This document shows positions 38,712 to 38,970 of a stretch of 64,000 nt of DNA, in pieces. Source of the stretch: Minisyncoccota bacterium (GTDB lineage: Bacteria > Patescibacteriota > Minisyncoccia > Phycocordibacterales > UBA2135); contig JBBDJW010000012.1 of assembly GCA_040879685.1 (NCBI GenBank), forward strand, positions 14,233 through 78,232, given 5' to 3'. Every line of letters begins with the position of its first letter. Position 1 is the first letter of the stretch. The translations under genes were made by a program, and so were the position numbers. The notes under the pieces are model-generated. The model did no database searches, was not told the DNA's origin, and saw only the letters and a program-made list of their open reading frames with translations.

Positions 38712-38783
38712 GCTCTCGTGGTGAAATGGATATCACAGCGGTCTTCGGAACCGCCGTTGGGGGTTCGAGTCCCTTCGAGAGCA
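38712..38783 (+). tRNA. tRNA-Arg (anticodon UCG), no encoded CCA
   Basis: Acceptor GCTCTCG/CGAGAGC, anticodon stem GCGGT/ACCGC with loop CTTCGGA, and T-loop TTCGAGT. Confidence 0.75.
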
Positions 38784-38951
38784 TAAAAATAAGGAGAAAA
38801 ATGCGAGGTATTTGGTGACTATATTTTTAGCGAATCGGAGAGACTCGAACCGAGCGCCGGCGAAGCTGTCTGAAAGACACGGCGCGAGTGGAGGCTAAGG
38901 GAATGAGATTATTTTGAGTTTGAAAAACGAAAAATAATCCATGAGAGTAGC

Positions 38952-38970
38952 CGAGTCCCTTCGAGAGCAT
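38952..38970 (+). repeat. 19-bp direct repeat of the tRNA-Arg 3' end (CGAGTCCCTTCGAGAGCAT), beginning at the T-loop C56-G57-A58 position; att-like scar
   Basis: It is identical to 38766-38784 and sits 168 bp downstream of the intact tRNA. Confidence 0.6.

Follow-up and report, generated by a model that had tools for sequence, protein, structure and literature searches.

A 19-bp sequence at the 3' end of a tRNA-Arg(TCG) gene, reaching one base past it, occurs a second time a short distance downstream, in the whole 64-kb stretch of a Candidatus Paceibacterota MAG that was analysed here (the window). Is this repeat a chance event, the scar of an integrase, part of a second RNA gene, or the trace of something else? 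The answer developed below is that it marks one copy of a widespread, apparently undescribed non-coding element of about 190 nt in CPR bacteria (Patescibacteria), which sits in tRNA genes, carries a conserved folded core and, as inferred, supplies a replacement tRNA 3' end. It is neither a chance repeat nor an ordinary integrase scar.

The repeat downstream of tRNA-Arg

An intact tRNA-Arg(TCG) is called by ARAGORN (38711-38784) and by the Rfam tRNA model (38712-38783, 61.3 bits). The 19-mer CGAGTCCCTTCGAGAGCAT occurs exactly twice in the window, and no match with up to three mismatches was seen in 100 shuffles, which rules out a chance repeat. It runs from C56 of the T-loop through A73 plus one base, and the gap between the copies is 167 nt. 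The interval holds no tRNA or tmRNA on either strand according to ARAGORN, and no Rfam 15 family (self-cleaving ribozymes included) at E<=10 on either strand, even with lax filters on 192 nt. The only ORF between the repeats is a 47-aa minus-strand ORF (38827-38970). The interval folds far better than shuffled sequence (z = -4.65). A segment at 38829-38851 is 77% complementary to 38762-38791, that is, antisense to the T-arm of the tRNA. The features of this locus, and of a second locus at tRNA-Gly(TCC), are as follows.

38664..38692 (+): promoter-like site (TTGTTA-17-TATAAT) just upstream of tRNA-Arg; a consensus pattern match only
38712..38783 (+): tRNA-Arg(TCG), intact, with no encoded CCA
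38766..38784 (+): left repeat copy A, C56 to A73 plus one base; the functional 3' end of the tRNA and, in the present reading, the first bases of the inserted element
38785..38828 (+): left arm, with an A-rich trailer, a weak apical hairpin and a T-rich stretch; in most family members an intrinsic-terminator-like hairpin, although no terminator was called by the scan in this copy
38829..38851 (+): antisense segment A' (AGCGAATCGGAGAGACTCGAACC), complementary to the tRNA's own T-loop and T-stem across the T55-C56 boundary; across the family it covaries with tRNA identity
38852..38951 (+): conserved core, with GAG; P2 three-way junction (stem 38855-59/38880-84, GCGAAGC 38860-66, hairpin 38867-79); CGAGTGGA; P3 38893-97/38948-52; AGGGA/GAGAG purine loop; P4 38903-05/38940-42; P5 38908-15/38931-38; it ends in GTAGC (family consensus GUGAC). 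The family covariance model matches at 38823-38963 (124 bits, E 2e-33)
38952..38970 (+): right repeat copy A'', interpreted as the displaced original tRNA 3' end; C38952 closes P3, and 38953 onward forms P1 with A'
39004..39031 (+): terminator-like hairpin plus T-run, 34 nt after the right copy; the likely end of the tRNA-element transcript
44984..45054 (+): tRNA-Gly(TCC), called by ARAGORN and Rfam, carrying the second copy of the element in the window
45096..45252 (+): second element, a Gly-type variant of the core, with antisense segment, core and start of the right copy (92.1 bits, E 3e-24)
45241..45289 (+): right copy at the Gly locus, a 49-nt exact repeat of 45037-45085 (tRNA 3' end, trailer and half of the hairpin)

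The interval after tRNA-Gly(TCC), at 44984-45289, is homologous to the Arg interval, and its 49-nt repeat starts at the same T-loop position. Both intervals contain TCGAACCGAG-N5-GCGAAGC. In each copy the bases before this motif are the reverse complement of that tRNA's own T-arm, GACTCGAACC for Arg and GAGAATCGAAC for Gly, and the N5 pairs with a downstream pentamer of a different sequence in each copy. These are compensatory changes between two copies in one genome.

What the first-pass annotation observed at this locus therefore holds: the repeat, its extent, the antisense T-arm fragment and the common T-loop position at the Arg and Gly loci are all confirmed. Its interpretation, a mini att scar whose interval is either the remnant of a deleted island or a very small mobilisable element, with the same integrase family suggested to have acted at both loci, is supported only in part. 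The downstream copy does behave like a displaced, attR-like tRNA 3' end, and the very small mobilisable element is close to the conclusion reached here. The deleted island is not supported, since the Arg and Gly intervals are homologous to each other and to about 120 compact copies elsewhere, and share a conserved, covarying fold, which random deletion remnants would not. The shared integrase is not supported either. There is no integrase between the repeats, and the XerC-like gene at 35239, which lies outside them, keeps its synteny with the NUDIX and CCA-enzyme genes in relatives, in one of which (L125; numbers with L denote the loci compared) the tRNA-Arg next to it is empty. The annotation had named as its own refutation that the interval might encode a functional RNA using the repeat as a helix arm. 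This is partly the case, since the first 7-12 nt of the repeat pair with the antisense segment to close the conserved core, but the interval is not a second tRNA.

Members of the family and their common architecture

A scan of one genome per GTDB species with a 17-base motif returned at least 118 loci. A covariance model built from 31 copies then gave 50 hits at E<=0.01 in 38 loci, all of them in Patescibacteria MAGs (Paceibacteria, Saccharibacteria, Kaiser-, Nomura-, Wolfe-, Campbell- and Shapirobacteria) or in small bins that look mislabelled. The remaining loci, which were left out of the model search, are chance matches in high-GC genomes and showed no upstream tRNA at the characteristic distance. 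An independent scan of metagenome contigs with the right-end 16-mer CCACGAGAGTGACCGA gave at least 71 further model hits. The family thus comprises at least about 120 recovered copies, although members were retrieved with motifs taken from the window. Most copies with readable upstream sequence lie 55-67 nt after a tRNA, while a few lie further away or without a detectable tRNA, and more than 20 different anticodons are represented. Within the window only the Arg and Gly copies are significant, so that two of its four tRNAs lack the element.

The order of the parts is constant, and every copy lies in the orientation of its tRNA. The repeat boundary is between T55 and C56 of the T-loop. The tRNA 3' end (A) is followed by an A-rich trailer, a hairpin with a GNRA- or GNA-type loop and a T-run. 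In most copies this looks like an intrinsic terminator, and it resembles the trailer of an empty tRNA (L107). The left-arm hairpin mimics the duplex 3' half of the tRNA. Next comes the antisense segment A', which starts about 55-62 nt after the tRNA end in most copies and ends in ..xTCG^AA(CC) (the caret marks the boundary), so that it extends 2-4 nt beyond the boundary and is complementary to the uninterrupted tRNA sequence on both sides of it. The core consists of GAG, a three-way junction (P2) with an invariant GCGAAGC mini-hairpin and a variable hairpin, CGAGUGGGG, P3 (GGUCG/UGACC), a 5x5 purine loop (AGGGA/GAGAG), P4, and P5 with a UGAG/CGAAA tandem-G.A loop. It ends in GUGAC, followed by the second copy of the tRNA 3' end (A''). 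The first base of A'' closes P3 and the following 7-12 bases pair with A' to form P1; both junctions therefore lie inside helices of the folded top strand. A terminator-like site usually follows the right copy. In the Arg copy of the window the left-arm hairpin is weak, and A' pairs with only about 12 nt of the tRNA, in its T-arm part.

The fold is supported by covariation. On 66 distinct sequences, 93.5% of cells form a standard pair, against 71.5% in shuffles and 31-44% when the partners are slid, and the covariation score is 0.46, against 0.13 in shuffles and about 0.05 with slid partners. Changes on both sides are seen in 25 of 31 pairs. Although this alignment was fitted to the model, and so leans towards the structure, RNAalifold on the independent MAFFT alignment gave the same helices, with double changes in 22 of 31 pairs. 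G.U pairs outnumber A.C pairs 87 to 32; one pair is G.U in 44 sequences, A-U in 20 and never G-C, and without it the ratio is only 43 to 32. Together with the purine-rich conserved loops, this favours the tRNA-sense strand as the folded one, but does not decide between RNA and ssDNA. The recurrent GCGAAGC, GCGAAAGC and GCGGAGC loops match the ultra-stable mini-hairpin DNA motif found at ssDNA priming sites (PMC13037366), but are also acceptable RNA loops.

Distribution, arrays and the case for insertion

The distribution of the element is patchy. Among relatives whose CCA-enzyme gene is 71-76% identical, tRNA-Arg(TCG) is followed only by a terminator (L122/L123) or directly by the CCA-enzyme gene (L125, L126), while in L124 and L042 it carries a different subfamily (TCGAAAG..GGGGTCGCGA..TTAGTAACTCGTGAC^). 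No clean pair of filled and empty sites was found at strain level, so that the exact inserted segment is inferred, not seen. Exact-protein look-ups recovered only short Logan unitigs of the same sample, which break inside tRNA-Arg, and one look-up returned nothing. In the closest relative (L126), 76% identical in the flanking protein, the two tRNAs are inverted.

Tandem arrays with decaying older units are common. Identical young units lie next to the tRNA, truncated older units of other subfamilies lie further out, and the original tRNA 3' end is at the far right (L135, L208, L249, L138, L177, L164, L009). L135 has two identical 205-nt units and then an older, truncated one. L208 has two subfamily-1 units, one subfamily-3 unit, further remnants and, at the far right, a tRNA 3' end with one mismatch. 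L249, L138, L177, L164 and L119 mix subfamilies 1 and 2, while L160, L194, L145 and L106 combine these with a second superfamily whose right end is GUACUG-GAACC-UGUAA-GGUU^CGA. L009 shows a deleted subfamily-2 remnant between the element and the original tRNA end.

Where A'' is intact, its identity with the tRNA usually stops 0-7 nt after A73, as is expected if the incoming element carries just the tRNA 3' end. Where A and A'' differ, A' follows the functional copy A, with complementarity reaching 17-18 of 18 with A against 9-11 with A''. In the CPR loci, 31-36 of 53 tRNAs are followed within 260 nt by the reverse complement of their own TTCGAxTCC, against 0 of 7 in the non-CPR loci, although the CPR loci were selected for holding an element and the control is small.

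No mobilising enzyme was found. Pfam scans of the 36 ORFs of at least 230 aa in the window, plus the 156-aa UPF0102 and a 208-aa ORF, show a housekeeping region (dnaA, dnaN, ruvB, PNPase, RNase Y, nusA and others), nine ORFs without any hit and a TraG/VirB4-like ATPase, with no transposase, reverse transcriptase, HUH or TnpB domain. None of about 60 right-end hits carries an ORF. A phage origin found no support: megablast of 6 kb against phage records returned nothing, and two scans of viral contigs gave only chance hits, those with the core motif carrying no tRNA and those with the right end lacking the upstream core motifs.

Interpretation and relation to known systems

The reading favoured here, with a probability of roughly 0.55, is that the tRNA-Arg locus carries a small (about 186 nt), non-autonomous, site-specific insertion element of a large family that is restricted, as far as sampled, to CPR/Patescibacteria. 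The orientation of the copies, the T55-C56 boundary and the order of the parts are read directly from the sequences; what follows is inferred from them. The element would have inserted into the T-loop and brought its own tRNA 3' end and terminator, so that the tRNA stays functional, while A'' would be the displaced original 3' end, which then decays. It would be transcribed as the 3' trailer of the tRNA or by read-through, ending at a second terminator. The folded top strand, RNA or ssDNA, would be what the mobilisation machinery, a putative enzyme acting in trans, recognises, and A' with AA(CC) would act as a guide or splint complementary to the uninterrupted target. In logic this resembles the internal guide of group I introns (P1 and P10) or the DNA guide at the left end of IS200/IS605 elements (10.1101/2023.03.14.532601). 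This reading does not account for how an incoming element comes to carry the correct A and A' at a new tRNA species. In the Kaiserbacteria MAG DRNP01 the cores at the Arg and Ser loci differ at about 6 of 118 positions (about 95% identity), while the left arms are only about 55-60% identical, both compared by eye, and in L208 and L164 units with different cores share an identical left arm. The core may therefore move or be converted independently of the left arm, or palindrome correction may keep A' matched to A.

If this is right, many of the single-copy tRNA genes in the tiny genomes of CPR bacteria carry gene-less elements that solve the problem of inserting into an essential gene by bringing a replacement 3' end and a terminator. 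That would be a new lifestyle for a mobile element, invisible to protein-based annotation and hence a possible blind spot. The elements would explain contig breaks and "partial tRNA" repeats in CPR MAGs, and could serve as strain-level markers. Since the covarying core is absent from Rfam, it is a candidate for a new functional RNA: a ribozyme, a guide scaffold or a protein-recruiting RNA. Full-text literature searches, including the conserved sequence strings, found no description of it. It is classed here as a site-specific insertion element in tRNA genes, but could prove to be categorically new once its mechanism is known.

A more speculative and rather unlikely possibility, which is not excluded, is that the core is itself an active RNA, either a new ribozyme class or the scaffold of a new guide-RNA system, using the antisense segment as an internal guide across the T55-C56 boundary to home into tRNA T-loops. 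It would in effect be a "fail-safe" intron-like mobile element, whose spare copy of the 3' exon and terminator let the host tRNA mature whether or not the element is removed, that is, a nucleic-acid-guided mobile element of under 200 nt with no protein gene of its own.

Among the rival explanations, the one that survives best, though it is unlikely, is a fixed, host-beneficial cis-acting RNA module of CPR tRNA genes, with a role in 3'-trailer processing, in folding or quality control of the tRNA, or as a trans-acting RNA made from the trailer; the antisense segment would then exist to pair with the tRNA 3' half. The conservation of the core sequence and fold across deeply divergent Patescibacteria, the constant orientation, the bracketing terminator-like sites, the continued match of A' to the functional tRNA when A'' decays, and the frequency of antisense T-arms among the selected CPR loci are in its favour. 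However, the same tRNA is empty or carries a different subfamily in close relatives, arrays of dead, truncated units and mixed subfamilies occur at a single tRNA, two of the four tRNAs in the window lack the element, and the full-length exact second copy of the tRNA 3' end has no role in this model.

About as doubtful is an IS200/IS605-like non-autonomous element (PATE), or a folded-ssDNA integration substrate like an integron attC or CTX-phi attP(+). A circular single strand would insert 3' of the T-loop GGTT motif, the left-arm hairpin and the P3-P5 hairpin would be the end structures, and the core plus flanking A'' would resemble an omega-RNA scaffold followed by its guide. One fixed orientation, insertion immediately 3' of a short motif, hairpins at both ends, no ORF and a structured right end followed directly by target sequence are features of IS200/IS605 elements and their PATEs (10.1101/2023.03.14.532601). 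The position of both junctions inside helices, the mini-hairpin loops, and the perfect tandem units of L135, which resemble rolling-circle or repeated re-insertion products, also fit. In the copies compared here the boundary follows GGTT and the direct repeat varies from 6 to 49 nt, with no fixed-length target duplication, but the motif alone cannot explain why only tRNAs are hit. Against this reading, no TnpA or TnpB domain is present in the window and no ORF-bearing relative was seen among the right-end hits. The left and right hairpins look dissimilar by eye, unlike the ends of IS608-type elements, and there is no Rfam match of any kind, which should include any omega-RNA-type families that Rfam holds. 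A guide equal to A'' would also match the occupied site and be self-targeting, and the GNRA-like loops and tandem G.A motifs fit RNA equally well. The left end also carries 18 nt or more of the target's downstream sequence plus a terminator, and the "guide" is a 10-20-nt antisense stretch spanning the site, not a 4-nt one.

The classical tyrosine-integrase reading of the first-pass annotation, in which the interval would be the joined arms of an attP left after deletion of an island or a cis-mobilisable element made only of attL and attR, is very unlikely even though a direct repeat from the T-loop to the tRNA 3' end is the classic signature of such integration (whose sublocation classes are reportedly treated by Williams 2002), tandem accretion occurs at att sites and about 190-250 bp is the size of a lambda-type attP, since no integrase lies in or next to any of about 120 copies, protein-binding arms would conserve sequence without compensatory changes in long-range helices, and the antisense copy of the target has no role in it. 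Identity between element and tRNA starts at C56, and the two bases to its left differ (GGTT^C in the tRNA, GUGAC^C in the element), so that the 7-nt T-loop, heterologous at two positions, cannot be the overlap region, although an overlap lying wholly 3' of C56 is not excluded.

Several known systems share some of these properties. Integrative elements in tRNA genes of the T-loop class, and their integrase-less derivatives (CIMEs), likewise insert within the T-loop, supply a replacement tRNA 3' end, leave the displaced 3' end as a direct repeat and accumulate in tandem. The present element is 130-250 nt with no gene at all, has a conserved, folded and covarying interior, carries an antisense copy of its target, does not share the sequence left of the boundary with the target, and has no linked integrase. 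Group I introns, including tRNA introns and IStrons, are similar in that one contiguous guide pairs with the last bases of the upstream exon (GGUU:AACC) and the first bases of the downstream exon (CGAxUCC..:A'), aligning both sides of the site, and in that the 5' junction sits in a hairpin whose loop is element sequence; this is a functional analogy only. The core of about 120 nt has no P3-P7 architecture and no Rfam Intron_gpI hit, the last base is C and not G, the 5' junction has U-A and not U.G, the site is the T-loop and not the anticodon loop, and the element contains its own copy of the 3' exon, so that splicing is not needed. CRISPR-associated transposons that home to tRNA genes by a delocalized crRNA (PMC11656645) also have an element-encoded guide matching the adjacent tRNA gene, at the element end next to the tRNA, but they are multi-gene Tn7-like transposons of more than 10 kb that insert tens of bp downstream of the target, whereas here there are no genes and the boundary is inside the tRNA. 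Bacterial MITEs and repeat elements transcribed with neighbouring genes (Correia, RPE, REP/BIME) are also short, non-coding, multi-copy, hairpin-forming and co-transcribed with the host gene. They have fixed terminal inverted repeats, short fixed target duplications and many kinds of insertion site, while here the inverted segments A'/A'' change with each tRNA, the direct repeat varies in length and the site is a tRNA T-loop.

A few narrower ideas were ruled out. The repeats downstream of tRNA-Pro are not a third copy, since they have no antisense segment and no model signal even with filters off. A tRNA-like scaffold, in which A' and A'' form an acceptor/T-stem minihelix for processing by RNase P, RNase Z or the CCA enzyme, is rejected for this copy and several others because A' does not pair with the acceptor part. 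Templating of A from A' by fold-back synthesis at insertion is rejected for the Arg copy, where A' is only 77% complementary while A'' is exact. The T55-C56 boundary coincides with the T^CGA cut position, which would suggest ligation at a restriction site, but the right junction, CCGA, is not such a site.

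Degenerate tRNA-Pro repeats and a tRNA pair inverted relative to L126

Downstream of tRNA-Pro(TGG), which lies on the minus strand, the region 39798-39960 (-) contains two degenerate direct copies of the 3′ portion of this tRNA:

39961-40033 (-), tRNA-Pro(TGG)
39869-98, first copy, resembling 39964-93 at 77%
39798-829, second copy, resembling 39945-76 at 84%, including the trailer

No antisense T-arm segment is present and the element model gave no match here, even with filters off. These copies may be a decayed fossil of the same process. The tRNA-Gly(GCC)/tRNA-Arg(TCG) pair (38536-38783) is inverted relative to the closest relative, L126 (1114-1463). 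In L126 and in a second relative, L125, tRNA-Arg lies directly upstream of the CCA-adding-enzyme gene, while in this window tRNA-Gly occupies that position. Two short contigs of the window's own organism (L003 and L252, Logan unitigs of the same sample) both end or begin inside tRNA-Arg (window ~38725-38747) and not at the 19-mer repeat, an unexplained assembly branch point.

Motif clusters and a run of ORFs without Pfam hits

A cluster of three DnaA-box-like sites, one a perfect TTATCCACA and two with one mismatch, sits at 39102-39130, about 130 nt downstream of the element, and is conserved in L126, although the dnaA and dnaN genes themselves are 30 kb away, at 9035-10387 and 7698-8801, respectively. 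The motif TGTCCTTTATA occurs 10 times against 1.4 expected and is clustered on both sides of the tRNA-Arg/UPF0102 region (38090-38142, 39126-39136 and 39741-39791), where it includes a perfect 40-nt palindrome at 39740-39779. This motif may be a regulator binding site. On the minus strand, 13202-24591 holds a run of eight long ORFs without Pfam hits together with a TraG/VirB4-like P-loop ATPase (16244-18061), which may represent a type IV secretion or conjugation-like cluster.

Copy-number variation and a tRNA-element fusion in other loci

Two samples of one relative species (L122 5523-5530 and L123 5523-5637) differ by one versus two copies of a 107-nt tandem unit downstream of the CCA-enzyme gene. 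On its minus strand the unit contains GCGAAGC twice and GAGCGAGTG-like motifs, so it may be a related small element showing copy-number polymorphism. In locus L046 (4215-4275, minus strand), the 5′ half of a tRNA-Ile(GAT)-like gene is fused at its anticodon loop to the right end of an element (..CACTGATA/TCCACGAGAGTGAC/CGAGTCC.., with slashes marking the boundaries), which looks like a deletion between the tRNA and a downstream unit.
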